Made by a program: the position numbers and the translations under genes. This document shows positions 8,194 to 48,334 of a stretch of 64,000 bases of DNA, piece after piece (within the stretch, counting starts at the first letter, position 1; every line of letters begins with the position of its first letter). The DNA comes from an uncultured Candidatus Binatia bacterium (GTDB taxonomy: Bacteria; Desulfobacterota; Binatia; Bin18): the NCBI GenBank assembly GCA_965203745.1, contig CBDBDK010000001.1, positions 478,180-542,179 of the forward strand, read 5' to 3'. The notes below the pieces were generated by a model. It did no database searches, was not told the DNA's origin, and saw only the letters and a program-made list of their open reading frames with translations.

Positions 8194-10443
8194 ATGAATA
8201 ACCCTGATATGAAATTCCATCGAAGTCGGCGCGGAGGAGTGCTGTCTTGGGTTGTGTTGCTATGCGCCGCTACGCTGGTGCCGCCCCTCGTGTTTGCCCA
8301 GCCGCAGCACATGCTCGAAGATATTACCGTCACGGCCCGCAAACAGGAGCAGCGCGCTTTTGACGTGCCCCTGTCATTGTCCGTACTTCAGGGTGAGGGG
8401 CTCGACCGGCTGCGCTCGTCGGGCATGGACGTGCGTTTTCTGAACAACCGTGTGCCCAGCCTGCAAGCCGAATCGTCCTTTGGGCGCTTCTTTCCCCGGT
8501 TCTACATACGCGGCTTGGGCAATACCGACTTTGATATGAATGCATCCCAGCCGGTCTCGGTGATGTACGACGGGATTGTGTTGGAAAACTCCCAACTCAA
8601 GAGTACCCCGGTTTTTGATATAGAGCGTATTGAGGTGTTGCGCGGACCGCAGGGCACGCTCTTTGGGCGCAACACCACCGCCGGCGTTATCAAGATCGAA
8701 TCGGCCCGTCCGACCTGGGACTGGGAGGGCTATGGCCGGCTGTCTTATGGACGATTCAACAGCGTGAATTTTGAGGGAGCGCTGTCCGGGCCGCTGATCC
8801 CGTCCGTCCTGGCGGCGCGGGCCTCGGTGCTGGTCCAGCGTCGGAGCGACTGGGTAGACAACACCTACACTGGCGAGGACGACGCCTTGGGCGGCTATCG
8901 CGATGTGGCCGGACGGCTTCAGTTTTTATTGACACCGACCGAGAATCTGTCCGGGCGGTTCAAGGTGCATATTCGCGACTTCGGCGGCACGCCTCGCCTC
9001 TTCCGGGCAAATGTGCTCAAGCCGGGCCATGCTGACTTGGTTTCGGGCTTCCGACGCGACAAAATCGCCCATGACGCTGACAGTGACGCGGGGGTGAGCG
9101 GCCACGGCTTCGCCTCCGAATTGCACTACACGCTTGGGTCTGTCCGGTTGATCTCGCTGACCGGCGGGGAGTGGCTCGACAGCTTCGCAAGAGGCGATAT
9201 CGACGGTGGCTATGGTGCGGTCTGGAGTCCGCCCAGCGGACCGGGCCTGATTCCGTTTCCGGCTGAGACCGAGGACGGGATATCGGCTCTGCGTCAATTA
9301 AGCCAGGAGGTGCGTCTGGAACACACGGCCTGGCAGCGCCTGGACTGGCGGGTGGGTGTCTTCTATTTCCACGAGGAGCTCGACATGTTCGGCCTCAACT
9401 ACGACACCCTGGCTGGAAATGTCGTGAATGGCCGTATCCGCCATGAGCAACGGACAGAAGCGTGGGCCGTGTTTGCCGGGGCGACGCTGAGCATCACCGA
9501 CAATCTCGAAGTGACCGCTGGCGTGCGTGTCTCTGAGGACGACAAGGAATACCGTATCGAACGTCTGCAGTCACCCATCGGTGCCGGTCCGCTTGGCCCG
9601 CTCCGCAAGGCTCCCCGCGACCTGGTGCCGAGCTGGGATCTGAGCCTGCGCTACCAGTTCCGGCCCGGCATCCAGCCCTACGTCCGCGTGGCCAGCAGCT
9701 TCCGCGCGCCCAGCATTCAGGGCCGGTTGCTGTTCAGCGACGAGGTGACTGTGGCCGACACTGAAGACATCATCTCGGTCGAGGTTGGTCTGAAGATGCG
9801 GCTGTGGCAGCAGCGGCTCCACCTTGATCTGGCGGCCTATCATTTCTGGATGAACGATCAACAACTGACCGCGGTCGGCGGTGATGCCAATGTCGCCCGC
9901 CTCGTGAATGCCGACCGTACCATCGGACGGGGGGTTGAGGCTGAGCTGGCGCTGGTCCTGGCCCGTGGCCTGCGCTTTACCGCAGGGGCAAGTTACAATT
10001 ATACGCGGCTTGACGACTCTGGTCTGTTCATCCCCCCGTGCGGCGCGGACTGTGCCGTCCTGGACCCGCCCGGACCGGTTCCCGGTACCGTGTCGATCGA
10101 CGGCAACCGGCTGTACCAGGCACCACGCTGGATCGTGAATTTCAGTCTGGACTATACCTACGTGCTTGCCGGTGGCTCGACCCTGATAGCGTCCACCGAT
10201 TGGGCCTACCGCAGCCGCATTAACTTTTTTCTGTACGATTCGCGAGAATTCCGTGACGATCATCGGCTTGAGGGCGGGGCGCGCGTGGCCTGGGTCTCGC
10301 CTTCCGGTGTCCTGGAAGTTGCAGCCTTTGGGCGTAATATTCTGAACGATACCTCTCCCGCCGGCGGCATCGACTTTAACAACCTGACCGCCTACATCAA
10401 CCAACCGTCCTACTGGGGTGTTGAAGGGGGCGTGCGTTTCTGA
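8194..10443 (+). CDS. TonB-dependent outer-membrane receptor (paralog 1)
   Basis: Signal peptide ...LVFAQPQ; plug-domain region DITVTARKQEQRAFDVPLSLSVL...VEVLRGPQGTLFGRNTTAG; about 750 aa; C-terminal GGVRF. Confidence 0.8.
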   Translation: MNNPDMKFHRSRRGGVLSWVVLLCAATLVPPLVFAQPQHMLEDITVTARKQEQRAFDVPLSLSVLQGEGLDRLRSSGMDVRFLNNRVPSLQAESSFGRFFPRFYIRGLGNTDFDMNASQPVSVMYDGIVLENSQLKSTPVFDIERIEVLRGPQGTLFGRNTTAGVIKIESARPTWDWEGYGRLSYGRFNSVNFEGALSGPLIPSVLAARASVLVQRRSDWVDNTYTGEDDALGGYRDVAGRLQFLLTPTENLSGRFKVHIRDFGGTPRLFRANVLKPGHADLVSGFRRDKIAHDADSDAGVSGHGFASELHYTLGSVRLISLTGGEWLDSFARGDIDGGYGAVWSPPSGPGLIPFPAETEDGISALRQLSQEVRLEHTAWQRLDWRVGVFYFHEELDMFGLNYDTLAGNVVNGRIRHEQRTEAWAVFAGATLSITDNLEVTAGVRVSEDDKEYRIERLQSPIGAGPLGPLRKAPRDLVPSWDLSLRYQFRPGIQPYVRVASSFRAPSIQGRLLFSDEVTVADTEDIISVEVGLKMRLWQQRLHLDLAAYHFWMNDQQLTAVGGDANVARLVNADRTIGRGVEAELALVLARGLRFTAGASYNYTRLDDSGLFIPPCGADCAVLDPPGPVPGTVSIDGNRLYQAPRWIVNFSLDYTYVLAGGSTLIASTDWAYRSRINFFLYDSREFRDDHRLEGGARVAWVSPSGVLEVAAFGRNILNDTSPAGGIDFNNLTAYINQPSYWGVEGGVRF

Positions 10444-10492
10444 TGACAGGTGTGCCTCAGGCCGGGACCTCGGCACCGTAAGGGAGAAGAAG

Positions 10493-12784
<2,292 letters not shown>

Positions 12785-13158: not shown

Positions 13159-13192
13159 GGTGCATTCCCCGTTGAAGTAGCCTATCTATCGA

Positions 13193-13228
13193 AGAGGGAC
13201 ACGGCATGTCGTGTCCCTCTTTTTGTTT
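13193..13228 (+). terminator. Rho-independent terminator after the ABM gene
   Basis: agagggacacg-gcat-cgtgtccctct stem followed by TTTTGTTT. Confidence 0.6.
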
Positions 13229-13290
13229 GCGCGTATGGGAATGCTTGCGTAGTGTTGAGGTGAAAGACCACACTCAGAACGAGGTCCCTC

Positions 13291-13746
13291 ATGATGCTCG
13301 AAATTGATCCGAAGGCGAAACAAGGCGTCCAGCTCGGTCCGGTGACGGTGACCGCCGAGGATATTCAATCCTTTGCCGAGGCGATGGGCGATCTCAACCC
13401 GCTGTATACGGACGTTGAAACGGCGCGCGCCGCCGGCTACCCGGACGTTATTGCCCCCCCGATGTTTTGTATGCGAATGCGCGGCGGCAGACTGCTACCC
13501 GAGGTTCCGCTCCCGTCTGGATTCATGAGTCTGCACGCGGGACAGGAAATCGAATTTCACGACGAGATTATGGCCGGGCAGACCTATACCATTACCTCGC
13601 GTGTGGCCGATGTGTATGAAAAAACAGGCCGGAGCGGTCCCATGGAGATTATTGTTCGGGAGTCGACGATTACGGATGCCGAGGGGCGAACGATCGTGAC
13701 GATCCGCGAGCGACAAATCGTGCGCTCGCCGGAAAAGAAAATCTAG
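13291..13746 (+). CDS. MaoC-like (hotdog-fold) hydratase subunit, short form
   Basis: 151 aa; FAEAMGDLNPLYTDVETARAAGYPDVIAPPMF is the MaoC dehydratase signature. Confidence 0.7.
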   Translation: MMLEIDPKAKQGVQLGPVTVTAEDIQSFAEAMGDLNPLYTDVETARAAGYPDVIAPPMFCMRMRGGRLLPEVPLPSGFMSLHAGQEIEFHDEIMAGQTYTITSRVADVYEKTGRSGPMEIIVRESTITDAEGRTIVTIRERQIVRSPEKKI

Positions 13747-13757
13747 GTCCAGGACCC

Positions 13758-14732
13758 ATGCGTATCAGTCTGGACCCCTGGGGGGGCGATTACGGTAGCC
13801 AGATTTCGACACCGCAGGCGGTCGATGAAGAACATCCCTCCGCCCAAGTGACCGGTCAGCAGGTTGAGGCTGGTCCGTGGCAGCCCCGAACACCAGCTCC
13901 CGAGCAGATGCCGAACATGACTGCGGTGATTGACGGGGTCATGCGGGTCGATGCGCCTGCGGTCCTGAGTGACGAAGATACACGCTTCCTGGCCCTGTTC
14001 GGATCGTACGCAGCCGGGGCGGTCGTTATTGACCGGCGCGTTGAGATTATCGAGGAACAGCTCGACCGCCTCTTTATTGTTGGCGGGGGGCAATCCGGAC
14101 AGGATGTGCTGGTCGCGGCGGGGACGGGTGGAAAGATTCCCATGCGCTACCGGAGCATGAGCGTATCGGACCTCACCCCGGATTCCTTACGTGAAAGCCT
14201 CTTGACCGCAATGCGACAGGCCGAGGTCGATTTGGCCCGCAAACTGTCCGGGAACGAACGTCTCATCCTTGCGGATGGTAATCTGACCTTTTTAGGAGAT
14301 AGCTCCTCAGTTGTCGGGGTCATCAAGACGATTCAACGTATGTACCTTGCACCCAAAGAGGCAAAAATTCTCGAACAGCTTCAGCCGGGTGAACGCACCC
14401 CGCTGTTCCAATTCTCTGGCAGCAGCAGGCGAAAAAGTTTTGAGGTGTTCACCTGTTATCTGCGTTTGGCGAATCCGCGACCGATCGAGCATCCGTTTAC
14501 CGGACTGGTGCGCTTAGAAGTGAAGCTTGGTCTTGGTATTCAGCAGGCGGTCAGACTGTTAGATCAAGCCGCACATGCTGTTTCGGCGCTGGCTTCCCGT
14601 GCGCCAAAAGACCCCCGCGCTCCCCAAAATTTGATTCCCATCGGCGGACTGGAGCGCCGGCTGCGGCACCGCCTGGGTGACCCCAAGCTGGTCCGGCGGT
14701 GTATTGAGAAGGCCCTCCTGAACCAGGTATAG
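13758..14732 (+). CDS. nurA: NurA-like nuclease
   Basis: 324 aa, immediately upstream of herA. Contains an AVIDG motif near residue 58 and a LILADGNL motif, which resemble the two catalytic Asp motifs of NurA (IDGS / DGSL). The assignment rests on these motifs plus gene context only. Confidence 0.5.
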   Translation: MRISLDPWGGDYGSQISTPQAVDEEHPSAQVTGQQVEAGPWQPRTPAPEQMPNMTAVIDGVMRVDAPAVLSDEDTRFLALFGSYAAGAVVIDRRVEIIEEQLDRLFIVGGGQSGQDVLVAAGTGGKIPMRYRSMSVSDLTPDSLRESLLTAMRQAEVDLARKLSGNERLILADGNLTFLGDSSSVVGVIKTIQRMYLAPKEAKILEQLQPGERTPLFQFSGSSRRKSFEVFTCYLRLANPRPIEHPFTGLVRLEVKLGLGIQQAVRLLDQAAHAVSALASRAPKDPRAPQNLIPIGGLERRLRHRLGDPKLVRRCIEKALLNQV

Positions 14733-14752
14733 CCAAACGGAAAGGAGAACGC

Positions 14753-16447
14753 ATGGGGAGAGTAATCGGCACGCAAGATGCCACCCCGCTCGAATTCTGG
14801 GTATGGCTCGAAGAAGGCGAACCAATCCAGGTTGATGATGCCATCGTGGTCGAGACCGACTCGCCAAACGGACCCCTGAAATTATTCGGCATGGTCGATA
14901 TCGTCCGGGCCCGCCATCAGGGCTCGACGTTTGACTCCGACGTGGTTGAGGCGGAACGCGGTCTGCCCGTTGAACTCTCCATCGCCGCGCACGTCAAAGT
15001 GACCCGTTTGATACCGGAGTATTATTATCCGCCGATGCCGGGCGACCCGGTCCGTACGGTCGAGGATGAAGAGTTCGCGCAAGCCCTGTTCATGGACAAG
15101 ATGGAGCGCAAGTTTCCGATTGGCCTGTCCCTGTCCGGCAAGGAAGTCGTATACGGCAACCTCGATTTTTTGAATGGTCGCAAGGGCGCGCATATGAATA
15201 TCAGTGGCGTGTCCGGCATTGCCACCAAAACGACCTACTCCACCTTTCTGCTCCACAGTCTGCTGCACTGCGGGCATCTGACCGACGCGAAGAACACCCA
15301 CGCCATTATCTTCAACGTCAAAGGCGAAGACCTGCTGTTCCTGGACAAGGCCAGTAACGTTATGGACGTTGAAAACGAAGCCCTCTACGCCCAACTGGGC
15401 CTGCCGGCGGAGCCGTTTGATTCGGTTCAATTCTATGTCCCGCCCACGGAAAGCGCGCGTGGACCGATCATGCCCAAGGTCAGCTCCCGCAAGGCGGATG
15501 AGGTCACGCCCTATTTTTGGACGGTTCGGGATTTCTGCCGTCAGCGCTTGCTGCGCTATCTGTTTTCTGAAGGCGGGGAAGACGCCTCCCTGCTGTCAGC
15601 CCTGACCTATCAGGTTGAACGCAAACTCCTTGAAGCAGCCGAAGACGCCGAGAAAGACGGTCCGGGTCCGGGTGTGTTGCTCCCCTTGGGAGAGGACTTG
15701 GCAGAGGACGACAGTTCAGCCCCTCCGACCGAGGTTCGCGATTTTCCGACTCTCCTCCGAGCGATGGAGGCCCTTGCCAGTGCGACCAACCATTCGCCAG
15801 GCACGGTCGGCGCGTTCATGCGCCGTCTGTACAGCGCCGAAGACAAGGTCTCGTATCTTATCCGCGACCCCGCGGATTCCGACGCGGCCCGGCACGCGAT
15901 CAACTGGCGCAACAGGCAGGTGACCGTGGTCAGCCTGAGCGGACTGTACGAGGTGGGCAAGAGTTTTGTGGTGGGCTCCGTGCTGCAACAGATTCAGGAA
16001 GAAAAAGAAGCAACCGGGTCAGCGGAACCCTTGTGTTTTATCGTTGTGGACGAGCTGAACCGCTACGCGCCCCGTGACGGCTGGTCTCCGATTCGAGAGC
16101 GGCTGCTTGAGATTGCCGAGCGGGGGCGGTCCAGCGGCACGATTCTGATCGGTGCGCAGCAAACCGCGTCCGAGGTGGAGCGGCGGATTGTTGCCAACCC
16201 TGCCTTTCGGATCGTTGGTCGGCTGGATGCCGCCGAAGCCGAACGTGCCGAATATGGTTTTCTACCGCCAACCCTGCGCAAACGGGCCGCGATTTTAACG
16301 TCAGGGCGGATGATCGTGTCGCAACCCGACATTCCCACTCCGGTCCCGATTCTATTCCCCATGCCGGCCTGGGCGACCCGGGCGGACGAACAGAAATTGC
16401 CGCCACCTGCTTTGAAGCTGTCCCGAGTCCGAGAAAGCGAGTATTAA
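14753..16447 (+). CDS. herA: HerA-family (FtsK/VirB4-like) hexameric ATPase-helicase
   Basis: N-terminal HAS-barrel-like TPLEFWVWLEEGEPIQVDDAIVVE; P-loop region NISGVSGIATKTT; Walker B CFIVVDELNRYAP; HerA-type ILIGAQQTASEV...NPAFRIVGRL block; GGAGA RBS. Confidence 0.8.
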   Translation: MGRVIGTQDATPLEFWVWLEEGEPIQVDDAIVVETDSPNGPLKLFGMVDIVRARHQGSTFDSDVVEAERGLPVELSIAAHVKVTRLIPEYYYPPMPGDPVRTVEDEEFAQALFMDKMERKFPIGLSLSGKEVVYGNLDFLNGRKGAHMNISGVSGIATKTTYSTFLLHSLLHCGHLTDAKNTHAIIFNVKGEDLLFLDKASNVMDVENEALYAQLGLPAEPFDSVQFYVPPTESARGPIMPKVSSRKADEVTPYFWTVRDFCRQRLLRYLFSEGGEDASLLSALTYQVERKLLEAAEDAEKDGPGPGVLLPLGEDLAEDDSSAPPTEVRDFPTLLRAMEALASATNHSPGTVGAFMRRLYSAEDKVSYLIRDPADSDAARHAINWRNRQVTVVSLSGLYEVGKSFVVGSVLQQIQEEKEATGSAEPLCFIVVDELNRYAPRDGWSPIRERLLEIAERGRSSGTILIGAQQTASEVERRIVANPAFRIVGRLDAAEAERAEYGFLPPTLRKRAAILTSGRMIVSQPDIPTPVPILFPMPAWATRADEQKLPPPALKLSRVRESEY

Positions 16448-16457
16448 GGATACGGGT

Positions 16458-17636
16458 ATGAGGTTCCTCCACACCTCGGACTGGCACGTAGGCCGAACTA
16501 TCCGCAATCGCTCGCGGATGGATGAGCACCGGGCGGTGTTTGCCGAGATTATTGATATCGCTAAGCGCGAGCACATTGATGCCGTCCTGGTGACCGGTGA
16601 CGTCTTTCACGAACGGCGTCCGCCGCTGGCTGCCGAGGAACTGGTGGCGCACACCCTGGCGCAGCTCGCCCGCGATAATATCGTCTCTGTTGTTATTCCC
16701 GGTAACCACGATGACGCCGCCCGCCTGCGCACCCTGAAACCGCTGGGTGATTTGCTTCACGTGCATATGATGACGGACATGAGTGAAACCCCGTCGGACC
16801 TCATTGTCTCCATTCCCCAGCGAACCGGAGGAGAGCGGGCGCTGGTGAGTTGTCTGCCCTATCTGCACCCCCACCGGGTGCTGACGGCGGCCGAAGGAAC
16901 CGACAAAAGCGAGAACGAACGTCTGAGTGTGTACCAGAGCATGGTGCAGGACTATCTGCGCGCCCTGGAGGAAGCGACGCTGCAAATGGACCCCAACGCG
17001 GTGTCCATCCTGCTCGCCCACGCCCATGTTTCCGGGACGGAGTTTGGAGGGGGTGAATGGCGCTCAAGCGTCTTTCCTGTTGATCCTGGCATCTTCCCCG
17101 GTCAGGTACATTATGTGGCCCTGGGGCATATGCATCAGCCCCAAAAGGTGGGCGGGACACGGGCGCAGGCACGCTATGCCGGATCGATCCTGCAAATGGA
17201 CTTTGGCGAGCGGGGCCAGGACAAAAGCGTCTGCCTCATTGAGGCCCATCCGGGGAAACCGGCGGAAGTCTCGCCCATTGCGCTGACTGCAGGGAAATCG
17301 CTGCTACGCCGGACGGGAACCGCCGAAGAAATACTGTCGCAGGCAGAAGAGTTCACCAATGCGTGGGTTGAGGTCGTCTTAAAGCCGGAGGGCCAAACGT
17401 CTGAGCTGATCGAGCAAATTCGGACGCTGCCGGGCGTAGTCTCGTTCCGGTTTGAAGAAATGTCGGCCAGCGATTCCGTCGACGAAACGATCCACAATCC
17501 GAAGGAGCGACCCGCAGCGGAACTTTTCACCGACTATTACAAGTCAAAACGCGGCGCAGAGCCCGAGCCTCAACTTGTAGCCCTGTTTGAGCGGCTGTAT
17601 CAGGAGGTCAGCACCGCGCGGGACGAGCCAGCATAA
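16458..17636 (+). CDS. sbcD: Mre11/SbcD-type DNA repair nuclease (calcineurin-like phosphoesterase)
   Basis: MRFLHTSDWHVG (motif I), TGDVFH (motif II), GNHD (motif III), LAHAHV and GHMH histidine motifs. Confidence 0.9.
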   Translation: MRFLHTSDWHVGRTIRNRSRMDEHRAVFAEIIDIAKREHIDAVLVTGDVFHERRPPLAAEELVAHTLAQLARDNIVSVVIPGNHDDAARLRTLKPLGDLLHVHMMTDMSETPSDLIVSIPQRTGGERALVSCLPYLHPHRVLTAAEGTDKSENERLSVYQSMVQDYLRALEEATLQMDPNAVSILLAHAHVSGTEFGGGEWRSSVFPVDPGIFPGQVHYVALGHMHQPQKVGGTRAQARYAGSILQMDFGERGQDKSVCLIEAHPGKPAEVSPIALTAGKSLLRRTGTAEEILSQAEEFTNAWVEVVLKPEGQTSELIEQIRTLPGVVSFRFEEMSASDSVDETIHNPKERPAAELFTDYYKSKRGAEPEPQLVALFERLYQEVSTARDEPA

Positions 17637-17683
17637 ATAAATGCCAACCCCCAACCCCGAATCCCCAGTCCCCCACTAAAGCC

Positions 17684-20600
17684 ATGCGTCCACAAAAACT
17701 CAGCCTCAAAAATTTCATGCCCTTTCGGGTGACGGGAGATCTGGTCCACGAAGTTGACTTTTCGCAACTCGATCTGTTTTCGATCACCGGCCCGATGGCC
17801 AGCGGCAAGTCCGCACTCATCGATGCCATGGTCTGGTGCCTGTATGGCCGCACCGCACGCTACGGGGCGGATTCAAAAGGCGTGATCTCGACCGGTGAGC
17901 AGACGTGTGAGGTTGCGCTCGACTTTACGCTTGGGCCGCGTTGGTTTCGGGCAGTAAGACGAACGGGGAAGATCACGGACTCCGGTCTCAGCGAAAGCGA
18001 AGGGGAAGAGTGGATACAGGATGTATCCGGGTCCGCGCGGCTCACCGGTCGGATCGAAGAGCTCCTAGGCCTCGATTTTGACAGCTTCACCAAAACAGTT
18101 ATCCTCCCCCAAGGCCGGTATGCCGAATTTCTCACCAGCGAGCCAAAAAAACGGCGCGAATTGCTGGCGAAGATCCTGGAGCTTGGCGTGTACTCCCGGG
18201 TGGCCGACCAGGCCAAGCTTGTAGCCGATCGGGAAAAAACTCGGGCAGAAACGCTACGTGAAACTCTGGCCCAATACGCCGGTCTGAGTCAGGAGCATAT
18301 TGCTCTTCAGAAAGACGAACTTTCCAAGCTCAGCCAACGCATTGAACAGGTTTCTCAGGAGGAGCAATGCTTACGCAATGTGGCTCAACACGTCGACCAA
18401 ATATCGGGCTTACGAAGTCGTGTGACCGAGCTGCAAACTGAGGTGCAGACGCGCACTCAGGAGAAAGAGCTAGCGCAAAGGAAAGCTGATAAGGCGACCG
18501 CCCTGGTTACCAGCCTGACAGATGAATTGGAAAAGGTTGGTCAGGAGCGAGAAGCGTTAGGATACGACACGGCGAGGCACGAGGTTGTCAAACGGGCTTC
18601 TGAACATCTTGCGGCCTGGATGGCTGCTCAAACGGAAGCCGAGCGGAAAAAGACTGAACGGGCCGCTGTCCAGGGAGAAGTTGACACCCTTGTACAACAG
18701 ATCAAATCCCACACGCGGCAGGTCGAGCAGGCTCAGTCTCAACATCAGGACTACGCCATTAGGTTTGAGCAGCTTGTTGTCGAAGCCGGTGACGTGACCA
18801 CACTGACGGAAAAGCTCGGCGCAGCAAAACGCTGGAAAGAGCTGCAACAGGAACAGCGGCAACTGGCCTCTCGGATAGAAGACCTACGCCAGAACCACAC
18901 CGCTATCCAACACCGTCTGGACGACCTGAAGCGGCAAGATGTAAGCTGCGAGCAGACCGTTCGAGAACTGAAAGACAAGTTCGAAAGAACAAAAGAAGAC
19001 GAACGGCAGAAACGCCAACTGATCGATGAAGCCGAACGTCTGGACCGAGAACTGCACGAGGCGACTGAGGCGGAAGAGCGAGTCAGGGCCGAACTTGAGG
19101 CTACCCGTACTACGCTCATCCAAGCGGAACATACAGCCCAGCAGGTTCATCAGGCGCTCGTCCAATCCGAAGAACAGGAGCAAGCGGCCCGCACCGCGCT
19201 TGAAGACAACCAACGCAGGCACGAAGCCGCCCACCTGCGGGCCACGCTTCACATTGGCGATACCTGCCCCGTGTGTCAGGCAACCGTCAACGAAATTCCT
19301 GCGGCTCAAGAAGCAGGGGAGGATTTGAAGGAACTCCAGGCTCAAATGGAGCGGGTCACACAGGTCGCCCAACAAAGACGCACGGCAGCGCAAGAAGCAG
19401 ACACCACGGTTGCCACATGCAGGGCGCGGCTTGATGCTGCGGAGCAAGGGCTAAAGGAACGTGAACGCCTCAGGCAGGAAGTCCAAGACCAATTCGGGCT
19501 ACGTTTCCCCGGCTATGCGTCTCCTCCTGAAGCCCTTCAGTCTGTACAGGTCCAGCACGGAGAACTGAGCGCAGCGCTCAAAGACCTGGAAGCTCAGGTC
19601 ATATCCGCCGAGCAGGAAAAAGCGAGGCTGTCAGGCCAACGCGAAGCCGCACAACAAGAAGAGGCAACGCTCACTGAAGCGCTGCGTGGGACAACTGAAA
19701 GGCTAGAGGCTGATATCCGCGAGTTAGATGTGCTCGGACGTGAGATTGCTGCGTTTCTCGCTACTAATGGTGACCCTGAGCAGAGTGTGGCACAACGCCG
19801 GACTACGGTGATGCGGGCTGAGCAACAAATGAAGGAGGCGGAGAGAGCCTTGCGTCAACTCGATTCGACGCTCAACTCACTGAAAACAACCCAGGTCCAG
19901 AAAGATGGCGACCTCAAATTGCTTACCGCTGAGTACGAGGGTACGTTGCTCAGAGCCGAGCGCGAAGCGCAGGCCGTACGTACCTGCCTTGGTCTGGCGG
20001 AAGACGCGGTGCTGCCGCAGACCGAAGACGTAGAAAGTGAACTCAAAGCGCTGTCAGACAAGCAAACCCGGCATGCAGATTTGTTACATCGCGAAGAAAA
20101 CGCACGGGCGAGGCGAGAACAGGCCGGACGCCAGGCCACCGCATCACAGGCCGACCTTCAGGCCCGAACGCAAATGTTGGAAGAGTCACACAAGAAGCGG
20201 CAACAGGTGTCCGACACGCTGGCAGAGGAGTGGGAAAAGCTTCGTGGGCTGATCGAGCAACACAACCTCACTGACGCCGGAGAGGATGGAGAGCAGATCA
20301 AGCCCCAACTTGAAACGGTTCGGGGACAGATGATGTCTCTCCAAGAACAACGTGGACGTTTAGAGGCGGAACATGCCGAAGCTGAACGTCGTTGGCAGGA
20401 GAAAGAGCAAGAAGAAGAAAAGCTGCACGCCGCACAGAGTGAAGCACGTCTGGCCTCGGACCTGCGTAAGCTCCTGGGTTCGGAATTTACCGATTTCTTG
20501 TCGCGGGGAGCCATAGAGGCTCTGATGCGTGACGCGTCCGCTCACCTGCAACGCCTCACCCACGGGCGATATGTGTTTGATATTGCGTATCGGGGGCGGG

Positions 20601-20965
20601 CGATCACACTCCAAATTGTCGACCACGAGGATCAGCGCCGCGCCCGGCCCACCCATTCGCTGTCGGGCGGAGAAACGTTTTTAGCCTCGCTCGCTATTGC
20701 ACTCGCTCTGTCGCAAGGGTTTCGGACCGTGGCGACCGGCCGGGCGGCCCAGACCTCGACCGAATGCCTGATTCTGGATGAAGGCTTCGGGACGCTGGAC
20801 CGAGAAGGGGTGCAGATGGTCACGGAGACCCTGCAAGAGTTGCGGGGCGAAGACGGCCGGATGGTAGGCATTATTACCCATGTCGAAGAAGTCGCTGCGG
20901 CTATGCCCATGCGCATAGAAGTGCGCAAAGGTGGCAGGACGAGCGAGATTACGGTATCAGGCTAA
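17684..20965 (+). CDS. sbcC: Rad50/SbcC-type SMC-like ATPase
   Basis: 1093 aa; N-terminal Walker A GPMASGKSALIDAM; very long Glu/Gln/Arg-rich coiled coil; central zinc-hook CPVC (nt 19264-19275); C-terminal signature SLSGGETFLASLAIALAL and Walker B CLILDEGFGTLD. Confidence 0.9.
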   Translation: MRPQKLSLKNFMPFRVTGDLVHEVDFSQLDLFSITGPMASGKSALIDAMVWCLYGRTARYGADSKGVISTGEQTCEVALDFTLGPRWFRAVRRTGKITDSGLSESEGEEWIQDVSGSARLTGRIEELLGLDFDSFTKTVILPQGRYAEFLTSEPKKRRELLAKILELGVYSRVADQAKLVADREKTRAETLRETLAQYAGLSQEHIALQKDELSKLSQRIEQVSQEEQCLRNVAQHVDQISGLRSRVTELQTEVQTRTQEKELAQRKADKATALVTSLTDELEKVGQEREALGYDTARHEVVKRASEHLAAWMAAQTEAERKKTERAAVQGEVDTLVQQIKSHTRQVEQAQSQHQDYAIRFEQLVVEAGDVTTLTEKLGAAKRWKELQQEQRQLASRIEDLRQNHTAIQHRLDDLKRQDVSCEQTVRELKDKFERTKEDERQKRQLIDEAERLDRELHEATEAEERVRAELEATRTTLIQAEHTAQQVHQALVQSEEQEQAARTALEDNQRRHEAAHLRATLHIGDTCPVCQATVNEIPAAQEAGEDLKELQAQMERVTQVAQQRRTAAQEADTTVATCRARLDAAEQGLKERERLRQEVQDQFGLRFPGYASPPEALQSVQVQHGELSAALKDLEAQVISAEQEKARLSGQREAAQQEEATLTEALRGTTERLEADIRELDVLGREIAAFLATNGDPEQSVAQRRTTVMRAEQQMKEAERALRQLDSTLNSLKTTQVQKDGDLKLLTAEYEGTLLRAEREAQAVRTCLGLAEDAVLPQTEDVESELKALSDKQTRHADLLHREENARARREQAGRQATASQADLQARTQMLEESHKKRQQVSDTLAEEWEKLRGLIEQHNLTDAGEDGEQIKPQLETVRGQMMSLQEQRGRLEAEHAEAERRWQEKEQEEEKLHAAQSEARLASDLRKLLGSEFTDFLSRGAIEALMRDASAHLQRLTHGRYVFDIAYRGRAITLQIVDHEDQRRARPTHSLSGGETFLASLAIALALSQGFRTVATGRAAQTSTECLILDEGFGTLDREGVQMVTETLQELRGEDGRMVGIITHVEEVAAAMPMRIEVRKGGRTSEITVSG

Positions 20966-21005
20966 GGCATTCACTCTCTGGAAGAGACCGTTAAGGAGGA
21001 GGGTC

Positions 21006-21875
21006 ATGGCACTGCATTCAACAACGGTTGGTTCTGCTGGACAACCTTTTGTCAGCGAAATCGATGCGCGTTGGGTCATGTCGTACGCGGCCGGACTCGA
21101 CGACTATTTACCCTGTTATATGGACACCTGCCGACCGGACGGGATCGTTGCTCACCCGCTCTTTCCGGTCTGTATTGAGTGGCCAGTCATGCTCGCCATG
21201 CGAGACAGTGCCCTGAAACGGGAAGAGGCTCTGCGGGGTGTCCATGCCACACACGATCTGGTGATTCACCGTCTTATCCGGGCGGGCGAAAAGCTGACAA
21301 CGCAGGCAACGGTGGCCGGCGTTGAACAGCGCAAGCCGGGGGCCTACCAGACTGTCCGTTTTGATACCCGGGACGCCGATGGCCAGCCGGTCTGTTCGAC
21401 CTGGTATGGAACGCTCTTTCGTGGGGTTGACGTCGAGGGGGAAGATAGCCCGGTCTCCGACCTGCCAACTCCATTGGAGCCGCTCGATACGGCGACCGGG
21501 GCGAAGGCGGAAATCCCGGTGGCGATTTCGGCCGGAGCGGCTCATGTCTATACCGAGTGTGCGCGCATCTGGAACCCGATCCATACCGACCCGGCGGTGG
21601 CCGAGCAGTACGGGTTGCCTGGGCTGATCCTGCACGGAACGGCTACGTTGGCGCATGGCATCTCCTGTGTCATTGCTCAGGAAACCGACGGTCACCCGGA
21701 ACGGGTCAAACGGGTAAGTGGGCGCTTTGGCGCCATGGTGTTCATGCCCTCACGCCTGACCGTTCGGATCGTATCGAGAGAAGCGAGCGCGGAGGGCGAC
21801 GTGGTGCGGTTTGAGATACGGACTGAAGAGGGCAAACCTGCGGTGCGGGACGGGGCCCTTGTTCTGGGTCAATAA
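21006..21875 (+). CDS. MaoC-like double-hotdog hydratase/dehydratase
   Basis: 289 aa from the ATG at 21006, with a GGAGGAGGG RBS. C-terminal hotdog motif YTECARIWNPIHTDPAVAEQYGLPGLILHGTATLA. Confidence 0.7.
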   Translation: MALHSTTVGSAGQPFVSEIDARWVMSYAAGLDDYLPCYMDTCRPDGIVAHPLFPVCIEWPVMLAMRDSALKREEALRGVHATHDLVIHRLIRAGEKLTTQATVAGVEQRKPGAYQTVRFDTRDADGQPVCSTWYGTLFRGVDVEGEDSPVSDLPTPLEPLDTATGAKAEIPVAISAGAAHVYTECARIWNPIHTDPAVAEQYGLPGLILHGTATLAHGISCVIAQETDGHPERVKRVSGRFGAMVFMPSRLTVRIVSREASAEGDVVRFEIRTEEGKPAVRDGALVLGQ

Positions 21876-21930
21876 GAGTTCTGGGTCAATAAGAGTTCAG
21901 CCAATAAGGACACGAAATAAGGAGAGGTGT

Positions 21931-22938
21931 ATGCAACGCGGACTGATTTTTCCCGGAGGCGGGATGTCGCAGCGCGACATGATGGTTGTGGCCAAAGAAG
22001 CCGAAGCGGCCGGTTTTGATTCTCTGTATGTCACCGAAGCCTGGCGCAGCGCCTTCGTGCCGTTGACCGCGCTCGCCCTGGCAACCGAACGGGTCCGGAT
22101 TGGTTCCTACGTGCTGAACGCCTACGGTCGCAGCCCTTTTATTGCCGGTATGAGTGCGGTTGACGTGGACGAGATTTCCGGCGGACGGCTGCTCCTCGGG
22201 GTCGGCAGCGGCAACCGGCATATTAACGCCGAGTGGCAGGGTGTTCCGCACGAGAAACCCTACCAGAAAATGACCGAGTATATTGAAAACCTCAAACAAA
22301 TCGTTCGTACCCCCGCTGGTTCGCGCGTCTCCTACCAGGGCGAAATTCATACCATGGACTGGGTGCCGGCGGTGACGCCCATTCGCGAGAGCATTCCCAT
22401 ATACATCTCCGCCATTTTCCCGCGTATGGTCCGCGTCGCCGGTCGGGTCGCGGATGGCATCGCCATGGGCGCGATATTATCCGCACCGTACGCGCGCGAG
22501 GTGATTCAACCTGCGGCCCGAAAATCTGCGGAAGAAGCTGACCGCGACCCGCACGCCCTCGGCTTTCTGATGGGCTCGTTTGTCTCGGTGCATGAGGAGC
22601 GTGAAGTCGCCCGCCAAGCCGCGCGTGAAGCGATCTGTCGTCTCTTCTCTCCGCTGCCGCATCCGTATTACGAGTACATGCTGCGGGAACAGGGTTTCTC
22701 GCCTGCGGCAGACGCGGCGCTGAAGCACGTGCCCGAGGGAAATATCCAGAAAGCGGCGGAGGCCATGACCGACGAAGTGGTCGATACCGTCACCATCGCC
22801 GGAACGCCCGAGGAATGCCGGCGTCGTCTGTCCGAGTATGAAGGTGTTGTGGACGAGGTGATTTTTGTCAATGTGTCCTACGCGTCGGGAGCGGGTGCGG
22901 GTATGCTGGAGGGGTATCGGCGTTTATTGGCGGTATAA
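21931..22938 (+). CDS. LLM-class (luciferase-like) flavin/F420-dependent oxidoreductase
   Basis: AGFDSLYVTEAWR...GRLLLGVGSGN is the LLM TIM-barrel pattern; AGGAGAGG RBS. Confidence 0.8.
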   Translation: MQRGLIFPGGGMSQRDMMVVAKEAEAAGFDSLYVTEAWRSAFVPLTALALATERVRIGSYVLNAYGRSPFIAGMSAVDVDEISGGRLLLGVGSGNRHINAEWQGVPHEKPYQKMTEYIENLKQIVRTPAGSRVSYQGEIHTMDWVPAVTPIRESIPIYISAIFPRMVRVAGRVADGIAMGAILSAPYAREVIQPAARKSAEEADRDPHALGFLMGSFVSVHEEREVARQAAREAICRLFSPLPHPYYEYMLREQGFSPAADAALKHVPEGNIQKAAEAMTDEVVDTVTIAGTPEECRRRLSEYEGVVDEVIFVNVSYASGAGAGMLEGYRRLLAV

Positions 22939-22982: not shown

Positions 22983-23228
22983 ATGGCTACGATACAGCCT
23001 GTCGCGTACGATGAAATTGTCGATCTGTTTGCCGAACCTGCGATAGCAGAGCGTGTGCTCTCCTTTCATCCCTCGCCAGGGATGCAAGAACGCGTTGAGG
23101 CGTTGCTTGAAAAGAACCGGAATGGCACGTTGACTCCTGACGAGCAAGCTGAGCTTGATGAGGTTGAGCGCTTGGAGCATTTTATGCGCCTCGTAAAGGC
23201 GCGCTTGCGGCAAAAGCTCGCGCAATGA
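22983..23228 (+). CDS. Small hypothetical protein (81 aa), translationally coupled to the downstream HNH gene
   Basis: Its stop overlaps the HNH ATG by 4 nt. Acidic helical C-terminus (LTPDEQAELDEVERLEHFMRLVKARL). Confidence 0.4.
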   Translation: MATIQPVAYDEIVDLFAEPAIAERVLSFHPSPGMQERVEALLEKNRNGTLTPDEQAELDEVERLEHFMRLVKARLRQKLAQ

Positions 23229-23641
23229 GTCAACGCGTCTCTGCAAAGCTTCGTCTACAGATCCAACGCCAAGCTGCCGGACGGTGTGAGTATTGCTTGA
23301 TCCACGAAGACGATAGCTACGCTGCCCATCAAATTGACCACGTTTTGGCCCGCAAACATGGCGGCACAACAACACAGAGCAATCTGGCCTATGCGTGCAC
23401 GCTGTGTAATCGCTACAAGGGCAGCGATGTGGCCGCGCTCGACCCGGACACACAAGAGATTGTCCCGCTCTTTCATCCACGCCGGCAGCAATGGAAAGCC
23501 CATTTTTCGCTGCAAGGGGCAATGATCGTACCGCTCTCTGGGATAGGAAGAGCAACGGTGGCGCTCCTGAGAATCAACAGCACTGAACGGCTCCTTGAGC
23601 GTCAGGAACTGATCGAGGCCGGACGCTACGGACAGGTCTGA
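23225..23641 (+). CDS. HNH endonuclease
   Basis: 138 aa; CEYC...HQIDHVLARKHGG...NLAYACTLCNRYKG is a canonical HNH fold with two CxxC pairs. Confidence 0.8.
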   Translation: MSQRVSAKLRLQIQRQAAGRCEYCLIHEDDSYAAHQIDHVLARKHGGTTTQSNLAYACTLCNRYKGSDVAALDPDTQEIVPLFHPRRQQWKAHFSLQGAMIVPLSGIGRATVALLRINSTERLLERQELIEAGRYGQV

Positions 23642-23666
23642 GGCGTCATCTCGGATGCGTGTGGAT

Positions 23667-24404
23667 TTACACATCCGCAGCCAGGCTGGCCAAAGAGCCG
23701 GAGCGGGGGAGGGCAATCCAACCTTCCCGTTTGGCGGTCGCCATATGCTTCTGCGGAATGGGTTCGATCTGATCCGTGGCCGCAGCCCGAGCGACAAGAG
23801 CGGCCACGACCGCATCAAGCGCGTCGTCGCTCTTCTCGCATGCCTCTCTTGCGTCAACCGGCCAATCTAACCACTTTTCTGTGGCGGTCATCAAACATCT
23901 CGTCAACTCACGCCGGTTTTCCTCGCCCTCCTTCTTCTTGTAGCGGCTGGAAGGGAAACCCCACACATGCAGAGCGGCGGCGGGATACACCTCGACAAAA
24001 CGACCGCGGCCACTGCGATCGATCCGTCCGGTCTCGGAGAGCAAGCGGGCGGCGCGCATGGCCGTGACGCCGATCAGGTCCGATGACACGCTCAACGGCC
24101 AGCGCTTGATGCGCTCCCGCACGATGTGGTCCGTCGTCCGGTATCGGAGCGAAGCGGTAGAGACGGCGGGCCACACGTTCCGACGCTGGTGCGCGTAAAC
24201 GGCGGTGGCGAATGCGGTTGGCCAGCCGAACGGAGCGTCGATGCCGGTCTTGTCCGAGCGATCAAACATCTCCAGCAGTATCTCGTCGTCCGCTCCACAA
24301 CGAAGCTCAATGATCCGAGCTTCCGGCTTGACCCATTCGATGAGGCAATACGCGGTGTTCTCCGGCTGCGCCGCCAGATCGACACCGAGCGTCGTGTGGG
24401 ACAC
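23667..24404 (-). CDS. DUF429-family protein (predicted RNase-H-like fold)
   Basis: LGVDLAAQPENTAYCLIEW N-terminus and overall length are typical of DUF429. Confidence 0.55.
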   Translation of the reverse strand: MSHTTLGVDLAAQPENTAYCLIEWVKPEARIIELRCGADDEILLEMFDRSDKTGIDAPFGWPTAFATAVYAHQRRNVWPAVSTASLRYRTTDHIVRERIKRWPLSVSSDLIGVTAMRAARLLSETGRIDRSGRGRFVEVYPAAALHVWGFPSSRYKKKEGEENRRELTRCLMTATEKWLDWPVDAREACEKSDDALDAVVAALVARAAATDQIEPIPQKHMATAKREGWIALPRSGSLASLAADV

Positions 24405-24461
24405 CTGGGAACCCCTCGCAAACTATTTTTTGGATGGTAGACTTTCTCTCAGGAACCGTGG

Positions 24462-24737
24462 TTATTCCAAATGGTCGGGTAGGGATGAAAATTCAGCGAG
24501 GTTTATACTCTTACCGGCCTGAGAGTCCCGTTCGGCCTCCGCCAGCCGTTCCCGCCAGTCAGGCTGACTCATCTCCTCCAAGGTCGCAACCATCCCGGCG
24601 TAATCTTCGTAGTTGACAAGCAAGGCCGCCGGCCGGCCTCTTTGCGTAATCACGACCGGGTCTCGCGTATTCTTTACGCGCTCAACAATTTTCTTGGCCT
24701 GACTCTGAAGATCCGAGATCGGAACGATTGTTTCCAT
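24462..24737 (-). CDS. Phd/YefM-type antitoxin-like protein
   Basis: METIVPISDLQSQAKKIVERVKNTRDPVVITQRGRPAALLVNYEDY is the Phd/YefM N-terminal fold. The track ORF is extended upstream; METIV is the likelier start. Confidence 0.6.
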   Translation of the reverse strand: METIVPISDLQSQAKKIVERVKNTRDPVVITQRGRPAALLVNYEDYAGMVATLEEMSQPDWRERLAEAERDSQAGKSINLAEFSSLPDHLE

Positions 24738-24980
24738 AAGGACACCTATAAACTTATATATGGACAAGTCTATAGCCAAAGAGCTGTGCAGGTGGCCCCA
24801 TCATGCCGGACGTGATACGTCCCCCGGAGTGTACTTCGACTCCGCCCCTCCGGAGCTACGCTCAGCACGAACGGCGATGGGAGCCGAGTGGCTACACATA
24901 ATAGTGAAACGCTCTGGTAAAAGCAGGCTTATGAAAAAAGCTTGCTCAAGATTCAACGCCAATACGGTTGAATTGCACAG

Positions 24981-26189
24981 TCAGGCTTCTTCTTCGTTGC
25001 GCATGGCCTCAAAATCATCTACCTCGGGCGTGACGACTTCGATGAAACGCCTGAGCGTGTCGGCCAGTGTTTTGGCGAAAGGCTCGTCCAGCGCATCTGC
25101 ATGACGTGATACTGTCAACTCGCACCAGGTGCCTTTTCTTGTCAACTCCTGATCCTCATAGACGCGCAGCTCTTCGATCCTGTCAACCAGGGCTTCGAGT
25201 TCACTTGTAGAAAGGTTCACAGACCCCGCCTTCGCCGAATTCCAATATCCCACTTTCGCTGTCCATTGAGCAACGCCTGAGTCGCTCTCCTTTCCTGGGT
25301 ACAGGTAAACTAGGTAGGCCAAATACGCGCTCCAAGGCAGACGCGAGTACCAGACGTTATAGTAGCGATAGTCGGTCGACGCCCCCGCCCATCTACTCTT
25401 CTTGTTCGGCTTGAGTTCGTCCGGCAAGTCGTCTATAGCCAGTTCTCCAACTCCTCTGAGGAATCGCGTAACCTCATCGTCTTTGTTCGGATTCTGTCGC
25501 GGTGAGCGGGCCCTCCGTATCGTGGGTCCGCTTTTGCTCGGTGAATCGCCGACCCCGATGACGTAATCCTCTACTCCTGGCACAGGTATGATTGTGGAAG
25601 TCTGTATGTACAGCGAACCGGTCTTCGCATCCCGGTAAGGCGTCAGTTGGACGCAAGTGATGAGGTCTTTGCCGGTGATTTTCTCGTTCAGCCAAAGCAC
25701 GGCAGAAGTTACTTCTGGAGCGAACCTGTGGCTCGCGAGGATGATATGCTGGTCGTTGTTCAGAATATCAAGGTTGTCCGACTCAAGATGTTGCAACAGC
25801 CTGTTCTCGGCTTCTGACTCCGACACCTTTTTGTAGTCGGCAAGCATGCGAATGATATTGTCTGGACTGGTGCTGTGGAGATAGCTTGCGTACTTGATGG
25901 CCTGCCAGTGGACATCCGCGCCCGTGTCGTCGCGCTTCAGTTCGATGACGACCAGCTTCCCGTCCGCATCCACCGCCAACAGATCGAGTCTCTCGTTCGT
26001 CTTGTCGAAGCCGCTGAACTCCTTACCAATTATCAGTAGATCCTCGCCCAGGATGCCCGGGTTGGCGGCTACCCATTCCTGTATGTCCTGCCGCTCCTGG
26101 AATCCCAGTTGGGAGAACTCGACCTCTTCTATCCTCTCGGACTCTTGGCTTTCCGGATTGACTCGAAACAACTGTGGTTCAGTGCTCAC
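24981..26189 (-). CDS. PD-(D/E)xK nuclease-domain protein (NucS/DUF91-like core) with a roughly 250-aa uncharacterised C-terminal extension
   Basis: RLDLLAVDADGKLVVIELKRDD...QAIKYASYL (D...D-x-ELK nuclease core), preceded by a QERQDIQEWVAANPGILGEDL helix. G+C is visibly lower than the flanks. Confidence 0.55.
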   Translation of the reverse strand: MSTEPQLFRVNPESQESERIEEVEFSQLGFQERQDIQEWVAANPGILGEDLLIIGKEFSGFDKTNERLDLLAVDADGKLVVIELKRDDTGADVHWQAIKYASYLHSTSPDNIIRMLADYKKVSESEAENRLLQHLESDNLDILNNDQHIILASHRFAPEVTSAVLWLNEKITGKDLITCVQLTPYRDAKTGSLYIQTSTIIPVPGVEDYVIGVGDSPSKSGPTIRRARSPRQNPNKDDEVTRFLRGVGELAIDDLPDELKPNKKSRWAGASTDYRYYNVWYSRLPWSAYLAYLVYLYPGKESDSGVAQWTAKVGYWNSAKAGSVNLSTSELEALVDRIEELRVYEDQELTRKGTWCELTVSRHADALDEPFAKTLADTLRRFIEVVTPEVDDFEAMRNEEEA

Positions 26190-33183: not shown

Positions 33184-33292
33184 GGCCGAAATCCGTCTGT
33201 CCAGTATCGGCACCATTTTCGGTAAGCGGGTGAAGTAGGAGAATGGGTAGGTATCAAAGCCATCTCTTGGTATGCTGTAGGTGGAGGGTCCG

Positions 33293-33907
33293 ATGACGAA
33301 TGTCCCCACATATGGGCAGAGTCCACCGCTGGTGCTGCATACGCGACCGGCTATCGACATGAGCCCTGAGCAATTCCATGAGTTCTGTTTGCTTAACCGC
33401 GAGTGGCGCATTGAGCGAACCGCCGAGGGAGACCTGCGGATTATGACACCAGCCGGAGGAGGAACGGGCAGTCGGAATGCGCTCATCACATCCATGCTCA
33501 CGACCTGGGCCTTACAAGACGGAACAGGCGTCGCCTTTGACTCTTCCACCGGATTTACCTTGCCGAACGGGGCCACCCGTTCCCCTGATGCCGCCTGGGT
33601 GCAACGCGCCCGCCTGACGGGATTGACTGCCGACCAAAAGGAGAAATTCCTGCCCCTCTGCCCCGACTTTGTGTTGGAATTACGTTCTCCAGCCGATGAC
33701 CTCGGGAGCGGGCAGGGGAAGATGCGGGAATACCTGGACAATGGCGCACAGTTAGGTTGGCTGATTGATCCAGCCACGCGCCAAGTCTACGTCTACCGTC
33801 CGTCTGCCACAGTTGGGTGTGTGGACGATCCGTCCCGTATGTCAGGAGACCCCGAACTTCCCGGCTTTGTGCTGGAACTGACGCCTATTTGGGAACCGCT
33901 GTTTTGA
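33293..33907 (+). CDS. Uma2-family (DUF820) endonuclease
   Basis: MSPEQFHEF...EWRIERTAEGDL...FDSSTGFTLPNG...PDFVLELRSP pattern. Confidence 0.65.
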   Translation: MTNVPTYGQSPPLVLHTRPAIDMSPEQFHEFCLLNREWRIERTAEGDLRIMTPAGGGTGSRNALITSMLTTWALQDGTGVAFDSSTGFTLPNGATRSPDAAWVQRARLTGLTADQKEKFLPLCPDFVLELRSPADDLGSGQGKMREYLDNGAQLGWLIDPATRQVYVYRPSATVGCVDDPSRMSGDPELPGFVLELTPIWEPLF

Positions 33908-46980: not shown

Positions 46981-47061
46981 TTTAGTGAAAGCCCATGAGG
47001 CTATGATAATAATCCCAGTAGCCACGAATGGCGCTCTCGGTTAAGAGATTCTCCTGATTCT
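46981..47061. repeat. 81-bp direct repeat, copy A (a duplicate of the 3' end of the Rieske oxygenase gene)
   Basis: Identical at all 81 positions to 49562-49642. Confidence 0.9.
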
Positions 47062-47117
47062 GTTTTTCTGTGCTACTGATTAGCACTGACACACCGAATA
47101 ACAGTGCAGGGCAACCC

Positions 47118-47432
47118 ATGCTGAGATTAACCGATCAGGAAAAGCAGGAGATTCTCCGATTTCTGGAAGCAGACCGGGAATTACCGGAGAAATACCGTTT
47201 CCTGCTATTCAAGGACAAGCGCGAGGTCGAGTTGGTCTGGAACGGCAAGACCAACGAGGTCTGCAATATCGTACTGCCGTTTCAGACTATTGAGCATGTC
47301 GACGAGCCACGGGCGGAGAAGCCACAAGACACCAAGGCTCAGATGGCGCTCTTCGATGAACGGGGCCGACAACTGCGAGGCTGGACCAATAAACTCAAAA
47401 GGTGGTGGATATCTTCGGCAATGACACCATGA
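47118..47432 (+). pseudogene. N-terminal fragment of an N6-adenine DNA methyltransferase (type III Mod / type IIG-like)
   Basis: VELVWNGKTNEV and GWTNKL match the conserved LxWxGK ... NxLIxGDN N-terminal blocks of these MTases. The ORF stops after 105 aa, before any catalytic DPPY/NPPY region. Confidence 0.4.
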
Positions 47433-47451
47433 CGATTGTGGAGGTATCGGT

Positions 47452-48324: not shown

Positions 48325-48334
48325 GGGATTTCCC

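Follow-up and report, generated by a model that had tools for sequence, protein, structure and literature searches.

The analysed DNA is a 64-kb stretch of the genome of an uncultured Candidatus Binatia bacterium (hereafter the window), in which a block of four genes, nurA, herA, sbcD, and sbcC, lies between two genes encoding MaoC-type hydratases. The block is part of a string of + strand genes that extends from 13.2 to 23 kb and comprises the following features (aa, amino acids; all coordinates refer to the window):

13191..13222, + strand, terminator-like hairpin (inverted repeat I2) with a 14-bp stem and a T-run, located 3' of the ABM gene
13291..13746, + strand, MaoC1, single hot-dog (R)-hydratase/dehydratase subunit of 151 aa (Pfam FAS1_DH_region, 4e-31; MaoC_dehydratas, 4.8e-7)
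13758..14732, + strand, nurA, bacterial-type NurA nuclease of 324 aa
14753..16447, + strand, herA, bacterial-type HerA hexameric translocase/ATPase of 564 aa
16458..17636, + strand, sbcD, Mre11-family nuclease of 392 aa
17684..20965, + strand, sbcC, Rad50-family ATPase of 1093 aa
21006..21875, + strand, MaoC2, double hot-dog hydratase of 289 aa (Pfam FAS1_DH_region and MaoC_dehydratas)
21931..22938, + strand, luciferase-like monooxygenase (LLM) of 335 aa, counted from the ATG at 21931 (Pfam Bac_luciferase, 3.7e-64)

The gaps between these genes, in order from MaoC1 to LLM, are 11, 20, 10, 47, 40, and 55 nucleotides (nt) long. MaoC2 starts, 40 nt past sbcC, with an ATG accompanied by a strong ribosome-binding site, and LLM, which is likewise called at 335 aa in the relatives, is the last closely spaced, co-directional member of the string. 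The coordinates and the spacings within the block (20, 10, and 47 nt) given in an earlier note on this DNA proved exact when the open reading frames (ORFs) were read again, and the Pfam calls bore out its placement of the block between two MaoC genes amid catabolic ones, as the flanking genes encode P450, CoA-transferases, amidohydrolases, luciferase-like monooxygenases, and TonB receptors. All four functions of the archaeal herA-mre11-rad50-nurA operon are present in this one cluster.

The first product of the block scored 41.4 bits with the Pfam NurA model PF09376 (cut-off 21; 1.6e-10), and it aligned end to end with NurA of Deinococcus radiodurans (drNurA; PDB 7F6D_H, 4.5e-25), while the match to NurA of Thermotoga maritima (1ZUP) was at 1.6e-6. 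Residues D59, E156, and D173, invariant across 58 homologues, are presumably the catalytic ones. Moreover, the N-terminal sequence MRIxLDPW with W8 (conserved in at least 90% of the same 58-homologue alignment) and the adjoining pin-like stretch are kept, MRISLDPWGGDYGSQ being aligned to MRIRLDPWPIDTFEGQ of drNurA. The pin-like element was found by Yang et al. to be required for strand separation, and archaeal NurA is devoid of it (PMC9960219).

For the product of herA (14753-16447), no significant match was found in Pfam (neither HerA nor DUF87) or in NCBIfam. Nevertheless, a search of PDB sequences returned D. radiodurans HerA (drHerA; 7F6D_B) at 2.2e-133 with residues 2-546 covered, and a profile built from 17 diverse homologues matched at 4e-196; given this full-length homology, the silence of Pfam indicates that it does not cover this HerA subfamily. 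The Walker A motif GVSGIATKT (K159/T160; nt 15206-15232) and the Walker B DE pair (D433/E434; nt 16049-16054) contain residues that are invariant in the 17 diverse homologues and align to K175/T176 and D487/E488 of drHerA, which are essential there and needed for the ATPase activity (PMC9960219). It should be mentioned that the earlier note had made its proposal depend on profile support for HerA, and that a verdict of "not HerA" based on the silence of Pfam and NCBIfam alone was considered; it is overturned by the 7F6D_B match. Both of the identities proposed in that note for this pair therefore stand, that of NurA through a Pfam score above the gathering threshold and that of HerA through the similarity to drHerA and not through Pfam.

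The two remaining products were also correctly recognised in the earlier note, as an Mre11/SbcD nuclease and a zinc-hook Rad50/SbcC. SbcD reached 179 bits with TIGR00619 (cut-off 77.65; 1.3e-52), contains the Pfam Metallophos and SbcD_C domains, and carries the phosphoesterase motifs DWH, GDVFH, GNHD, and GHMH. Its best match among solved structures was E. coli SbcD (4LTY/6S6V, 1e-31), with archaeal Mre11 at 7e-13. SbcC matched Pfam AAA_23 (6.9e-21) and SbcC_Walker_B (3.3e-10), both above their cut-offs, and its best solved match was E. coli SbcC (6S6V_C, 6.9e-25). It possesses a Walker A motif (GPMASGKS), a signature motif (LSGGE), a Walker B motif (LILDEGFG), and a coiled coil, in the middle of which the zinc hook CPVC is located (residues 528-531 of 1093; nt 19265-19276).

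For all four proteins bacterial references outscored archaeal ones: the matches to archaeal Mre11 and Rad50 were far weaker than those to the SbcCD proteins of E. coli and T. maritima, and archaeal HerA was not retrieved by the HerA family profile at E <= 1e-3. The set is therefore archaeal-like in its content only. The "archaeal-style" operon of the earlier note holds insofar as the same four functions occur in one cluster; the gene order differs, however, and the sequences are bacterial-type.

For the comparative analysis, eight window proteins were mapped by tblastn onto 71 fetched loci (designated below with L numbers), which were retrieved through HerA and hence represent HerA-carrying genomes only. 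About 20 metagenome-assembled genomes (MAGs) of Candidatus Binatia (phylum Binatota), which are complete chromosomes of 3.8-6.0 Mb, have a HerA 88-98% identical to that of the window. All 19 of the nearest species representatives whose flanks could be read (HerA 88-98%) have the order MaoC1-NurA-HerA-SbcD-SbcC-MaoC2-LLM, and ABM is located upstream of MaoC1 in 18 of them. Where the sequence of a Binatia-type locus continues beyond sbcD (about 37 loci), sbcC follows in every case but one (L036, where it is absent within 8.8 kb after sbcD). The deeper Binatia (HerA 75-85%) keep nurA-herA-sbcD-sbcC within partly different flanks, that is, with ABM-PpoB2-MaoC1-MaoCB upstream, or with rpiA or DUF1016 and no MaoC; on the whole, MaoC1 precedes nurA in most Binatia loci. 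The mean identities of block genes and flank genes are tightly correlated (r = 0.92, n = 18 relatives), which indicates that block and flanks were inherited together. Judged from these comparisons, the four-gene block is an operon that Binatia have long possessed and passed on vertically.

The earlier note had put forward quite a different history, in which a recent, horizontally acquired island of archaeal derivation was inserted between two MaoC genes and split a hydratase pair, the G+C of the block appearing lower than that of its flanks. The gene content is indeed that of the archaeal operon, and the TonB receptor genes immediately upstream are richer in G+C. However, the G+C of the block (0.5849) hardly differs from that of the rest of the window (0.5837) and ranks at the 54th percentile among windows of its size. 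The G+C at third codon positions (GC3) of the four genes is 0.60-0.70 (0.63-0.78 in other genes), and the tetranucleotide distance of the block gives z values from -1.05 to +0.70, so all three measures are native. A search for island borders found no tRNA, Rfam element, bounding direct repeats, or integrase. The impression of a low G+C results from the neighbourhood of two tandem paralogous genes for TonB-dependent receptors (8194-12784; G+C 0.61-0.64), situated between the ADH and ABM genes. In L001 and L002 this receptor pair is absent at the site and ADH adjoins ABM; it is the receptor pair, and not the repair block, that constitutes the lineage-specific content near the locus.

The supposed splitting of a hydratase pair does not agree with the relationship between the flanking genes either. 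MaoC1 and MaoC2 share just 28% identity over 100 residues and are, by this measure, distant paralogues, and their similarity is also too distant for MaoC2 to be a fusion of MaoC1 with its partner subunit, which was considered and ruled out. The deeper lineages have, next after MaoC1, a second hot-dog subunit of 145-155 aa (MaoCB), which is the natural partner of MaoC1. As both genes lie upstream of nurA, no hydratase pair was split by the block. Adjacency of MaoC1 and MaoC2 was not seen in the close relatives with readable flanks, all of which carry the block between them; relatives thus have the block, at native G+C, between the same two MaoC genes, a picture that the earlier note itself would have read as ancestral. 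Considering also the bacterial type of the four proteins and the presence of the block throughout the class, a recent archaeal-derived insertion is hardly credible.

Two other parts of the window do deviate in composition. A 463-aa ORF at 37703-39094 (G+C 0.449; GC3 0.43 vs about 0.70 elsewhere) has no Pfam or PADLOC match and lies within the highest tetranucleotide deviation of the window (z about 2.1-2.2), and it is a far better candidate for a recent acquisition than the repair block. A second stretch of low G+C (0.513), at 47000-49500, contains small ORFs without matches, as well as genes for a weakly HATPase_c-like protein (47452-48324) and a PIN-domain protein (48609-49223).

Linkage of NurA-HerA with SbcCD is not confined to Binatia, and the statement of the earlier note that bacterial herA-nurA pairs are usually separate from sbcCD is not general, being contradicted by the recovered sample as well as by Oceanithermus (PMC5448004). 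The arrangement nurA-herA-sbcD, followed by a contig end, was found in Solirubrobacteraceae, sbcD-sbcC-nurA-herA in Coprothermobacterota, and herA-sbcD-sbcC in Chloroflexota. In a Euzebya MAG (L055, 10001-19928) the order is the archaeal one, herA-methyltransferase-sbcD-sbcC-nurA, directly followed by a UvrD-family helicase gene. Furthermore, in Oceanithermus profundus sbcD and sbcC were reported downstream of nurA-hepA and interpreted as an archaeal-like architecture for double-strand-break repair (Blesa et al. 2017; PMC5448004), which means that the nurA-herA-sbcD-sbcC linkage itself is already known. Sampled loci in which nurA-herA stands alone are about equally numerous. In sum, the linkage occurs in at least four phyla of the sample, in three gene orders, with Deinococcota added from the literature (PMC5448004).

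These data bear on the question of whether nurA-herA and sbcDC might be two independent systems placed side by side, without physical or functional cooperation. Such independence is what one could read from D. radiodurans and Thermus, in which nurA-herA is located away from sbcCD (PMC5448004), from the several sampled phyla where nurA-herA stands alone, from the entry of small genes into the sbcD-sbcC spacer, and from L036 with no nearby sbcC. Recurrence of the linkage in three gene orders, on the other hand, points to selection on co-localisation and not to one inherited accident, and in the window herA and sbcD are separated by only 10 nt. In a study on archaeal homologues, Mre11 and HerA reportedly interact physically. 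Hence, we regard mere juxtaposition of two unrelated systems as improbable.

Taking into account the gene identities, the intact catalytic motifs, the operon-like spacing, the class-wide conservation, and the recurrent linkage in other phyla, all observed here, we consider that the block is probably (with a probability of about 0.72) a housekeeping operon for end resection at double-strand breaks, in which a Deinococcus-type NurA-HerA motor would be joined to an SbcCD of bacterial type. What the proteins do biochemically, and that the two modules cooperate, is suggested by analogy with NurA-HerA of D. radiodurans, SbcCD of E. coli, and the operon of archaea. According to the proposed mechanism, SbcC dimers joined by their CPVC hooks would recognise, together with SbcD, broken, hairpin-capped, or protein-blocked DNA ends, and SbcCD would clean these ends by ATP-dependent endo- and exonucleolytic cuts. 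A HerA hexamer, with a NurA dimer bound at its HAS-barrel face, would thread the duplex through its pore, the strands would be split by the N-terminal pin-like element of NurA, and NurA would degrade the 5' strand during translocation, so that a 3' tail is left for RecA. By the same analogy, a HerA hexamer-NurA dimer complex capable of ATP-dependent end resection is predicted for Binatia. Neither RecBCD/AddAB nor a second sbcCD was found within the 64-kb window, and the supplements of the Binatota genomics paper contained nothing on repair genes.

It should be stressed that several observations speak against the end-resection operon. The first concerns SbcC, which scored 228 bits (1.8e-67) with TIGR00618, under its cut-off of 478.5, the scores with SbcC equivalog models being in general far under their cut-offs; the protein is therefore a divergent SbcC, and the assignment is limited to the SbcC/Rad50 family. 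Approximately half of the sampled non-Binatia HerA loci have no sbcCD within 10 kb, which means that members of the family need not cooperate with SbcCD. In D. radiodurans and Thermus thermophilus, deletion of nurA/herA gave a mild phenotype or even improved damage resistance, and what bacterial NurA-HerA does in vivo is disputed (PMC9960219). In a 2026 study of an archaeal HerA-NurA, it was argued that both strands are degraded, and an action on foreign DNA in place of resection was proposed (PMC12977600). Finally, NurA has diverged far more rapidly than HerA within Binatia (about 50-60% vs 75-90% identity), and such fast evolution, together with allele replacement, is unexpected for a strictly housekeeping gene.

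The replacement was found in L027 (6072-9828), one of the 19 nearest representatives, in which HerA and SbcD are 98% and 96% identical to those of the window, and a divergent allele (52%), whose product is at most 52% identical to any other recovered NurA, has taken the place of most of nurA. The stretch without homology to the window begins exactly at the MaoC1 stop codon and extends to about 145 nt ahead of the stop codon of nurA. Upstream of nurA this locus has a 3-kb insert, which encodes proteins of 314 and 149 aa, the latter of which, judged by eye, looks like a type III secretion chaperone. In other loci the two proteins also give different pictures: HerA of L005 and L038 is 93% identical and NurA just 54%, and HerA of L025 is 90% identical to that of the window and 83% to that of L003, whereas the relation is reversed for NurA (60% and 85%, respectively). 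The NurA and HerA trees accordingly disagree within Binatia (L005 vs L038; L025/L026 vs L003), which suggests recombination inside the operon. The sbcD-sbcC spacer, too, is an insertion site in some Binatia. In L037 (13248-13939) it contains two small ORFs that by eye resemble a VapBC-type toxin-antitoxin pair, in L043 (6735-7496) a 253-aa gene with a likeness to Uma2, again as judged by eye, and a similar-sized gap is present in L039 and L044.

Just downstream of the operon there is a small, variable, defence-like group of genes (23225-26189), which comprises:

23225-23641, HNH endonuclease with weak similarity to PtuB
23667-24404, - strand, DUF429 protein of the candidate defence family PDC-S44
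24981-26189, - strand, 402-aa protein of the candidate defence family PDC-S11 (7e-71)

The PDC-S11 gene was uncalled in L001 and L002, where a PhdYeFM antitoxin gene is found near that position.

The fast divergence of NurA and the replacement in L027 recall an arms race, and they could be explained if the block mainly destroyed foreign linear DNA, either as a RecBCD-like or as a dedicated anti-phage machine, with repair being secondary or absent. HerA ATPases with effectors are proven defence systems (Sir2-HerA and DUF4297-HerA), an antiviral role was proposed by the authors for HerA-NurA of T. kodakarensis, which digests both strands (PMC12977600), the candidate defence genes (PDC-S11, DUF429/PDC-S44, and PtuB-like HNH) lie 2-4 kb downstream, and the by-eye toxin-antitoxin and Uma2 calls fall between sbcD and sbcC in relatives. 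Nevertheless, the matches of HerA to defence models were marginal (PADLOC HerA 1.9e-4 and mad8 7.7e-7, compared to 2e-133 for drHerA), NCBIfam HerA_antiphage_2 gave 13.4 bits against a cut-off of 850, and NurA had no PADLOC match. The neighbours of herA are NurA and SbcD, and not a Sir2 or DUF4297 partner. Defence systems are typically patchy and mobile, whereas the block is in the same position in nearly every Binatia locus recovered through HerA and co-diverges with its metabolic flanks; its native composition speaks against an anti-phage role as well. A literature search found no described NurA-HerA-SbcCD defence system. The defence module suggested as an alternative in the earlier note has thus received no positive support, with marginal model matches, no Sir2/DUF4297, and a fixed class-wide position, and we consider destruction of foreign DNA as the main function unlikely. 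A RecBCD-like dual role, in both repair and defence, is possible in view of the evolution of NurA, the downstream candidates, and the inserts between sbcD and sbcC.

A distinct lineage is represented by L008 (11678-17290; also L009 and L010; HerA 53%), in which nurA-herA is followed by a gene for a 504-aa protein. This protein has the SbcD motif MRFIHTADWH at its start and a Walker B region of SbcC at its end, and it looks like a product of an sbcD/sbcC deletion-fusion. About 1.3 kb beyond it, a 923-aa OLD-TOPRIM/UvrD-helicase protein, Gabija-like, is encoded.

Returning to the end-resection operon, what is new here is the class-wide conserved block in Binatia, since the linkage of the NurA-HerA module to SbcCD was already known. 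A clear DNA-break-processing operon would in this way be assigned to Binatia, which are uncultured and widespread and include sponge symbionts, and comparative evidence is added for bacterial NurA-HerA working with SbcCD, the cultured models Deinococcus and Thermus having these modules unlinked. The locus also exemplifies how a gene set that looks archaeal and stands amid metabolic genes may be native and of ancient origin. A more far-reaching proposal, to which we attach only tentative and rather doubtful status, is that in Binatia and several other phyla NurA-HerA of the bacterial type serves SbcCD as a dedicated partner, the two forming a four-protein machine equivalent to archaeal HerA-Mre11-Rad50-NurA and maybe the main resection route in place of RecBCD/AddAB. 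If so, the three orders (nurA-herA-sbcDC, herA-sbcDC-nurA, and sbcDC-nurA-herA) would reflect repeated selection for co-expression, and the dispute over the function of bacterial NurA-HerA in vivo would be easier to settle. On this reading, the rapid, mosaic change in NurA might point to an interface at which phage inhibitors are aimed.

As regards the limits of the transcription unit, the hairpin at 13191-13222 is kept in the closest relatives and is likely its upstream boundary in this lineage. In other relatives a gene for PpoB2, a DUF2182-like membrane protein, is present between ABM and MaoC1; here it is deleted (13191-13262), and a remnant of its last approximately 25 bp has been retained, preceded by the hairpin. 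A scan for consensus promoters upstream of MaoC1 found none, and the sequence TTGCGC-N17-TAGTGT, considered as a sigma-70-type promoter, was rejected, as it partly consists of what remains of the 3' end of the deleted PpoB2 gene. With no convincing promoter, the operon limits from MaoC1 to LLM were set from the spacing only. The MaoC, ABM, and luciferase-like genes are long-standing syntenic neighbours of the block and may be co-transcribed with it, and nothing indicates their functional link to repair. At the end of MaoC2, a perfect tandem duplication of a 17-nt sequence (GTTCTGGGTCAATAAGA, two copies) spans the stop codon (21861-21894) and is followed by a degenerate third copy; L011 has three degenerate copies of this repeat.

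Elsewhere in the window, a putative endonuclease of the Uma2 family is encoded at 33281-33907 and, after it, a 142-aa protein (to 34396) similar to the N-terminus of PD-Lambda-2_B (4e-20), and RarA/MgsA, a recombination-associated ATPase, is encoded at 57184-58620.

Among known systems, the NurA-HerA complex of D. radiodurans (PDB 7F6D, 7WRW, and 7WRX; Xu 2022, Yang 2023) resembles the Binatia pair in the full-length homology of HerA with the same Walker residues, in the location of nurA directly upstream of herA, and in a homologous NurA with the N-terminal W8 and pin-like element. It differs in that nurA-herA is not beside sbcCD, whereas in Binatia sbcD starts 10 nt past herA; moreover, the NurA proteins are just distantly similar and the hosts belong to Deinococcota and to uncultured Binatia, respectively. 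The nurA-hepA-sbcD-sbcC genes of O. profundus, compared through their published description (PMC5448004), are four bacterial-type genes in the identical order, although they come from another phylum and represent an observation from a single genus, while the Binatia block is class-wide and embedded amid MaoC, ABM, and luciferase-like genes.

In the archaeal herA-mre11-rad50-nurA operon (Constantinesco et al. 2004), the four functions correspond to those of the block and are presumed to act together in resecting 5' ends, but the gene order is different, the Binatia sequences are bacterial-type, and archaeal NurA has no pin-like element (PMC9960219). E. coli SbcCD (6S6V), the best solved match for both SbcD and SbcC, shares with the Binatia proteins the phosphoesterase motifs, the ABC-type ATPase head, and the CxxC zinc hook; its sbcDC genes stand alone, without nurA-herA, and the Binatia SbcC falls under the TIGR00618 cut-off. 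Finally, the Sir2-HerA and DUF4297-HerA systems likewise pair a HerA-family hexameric ATPase with an adjacent gene for a nuclease-type effector. In Binatia, however, this effector is NurA, the similarity is confined to the RecA core (profile E 1e-5 to 1e-6), and the block is conserved in its position throughout the class and does not form a patchy island.

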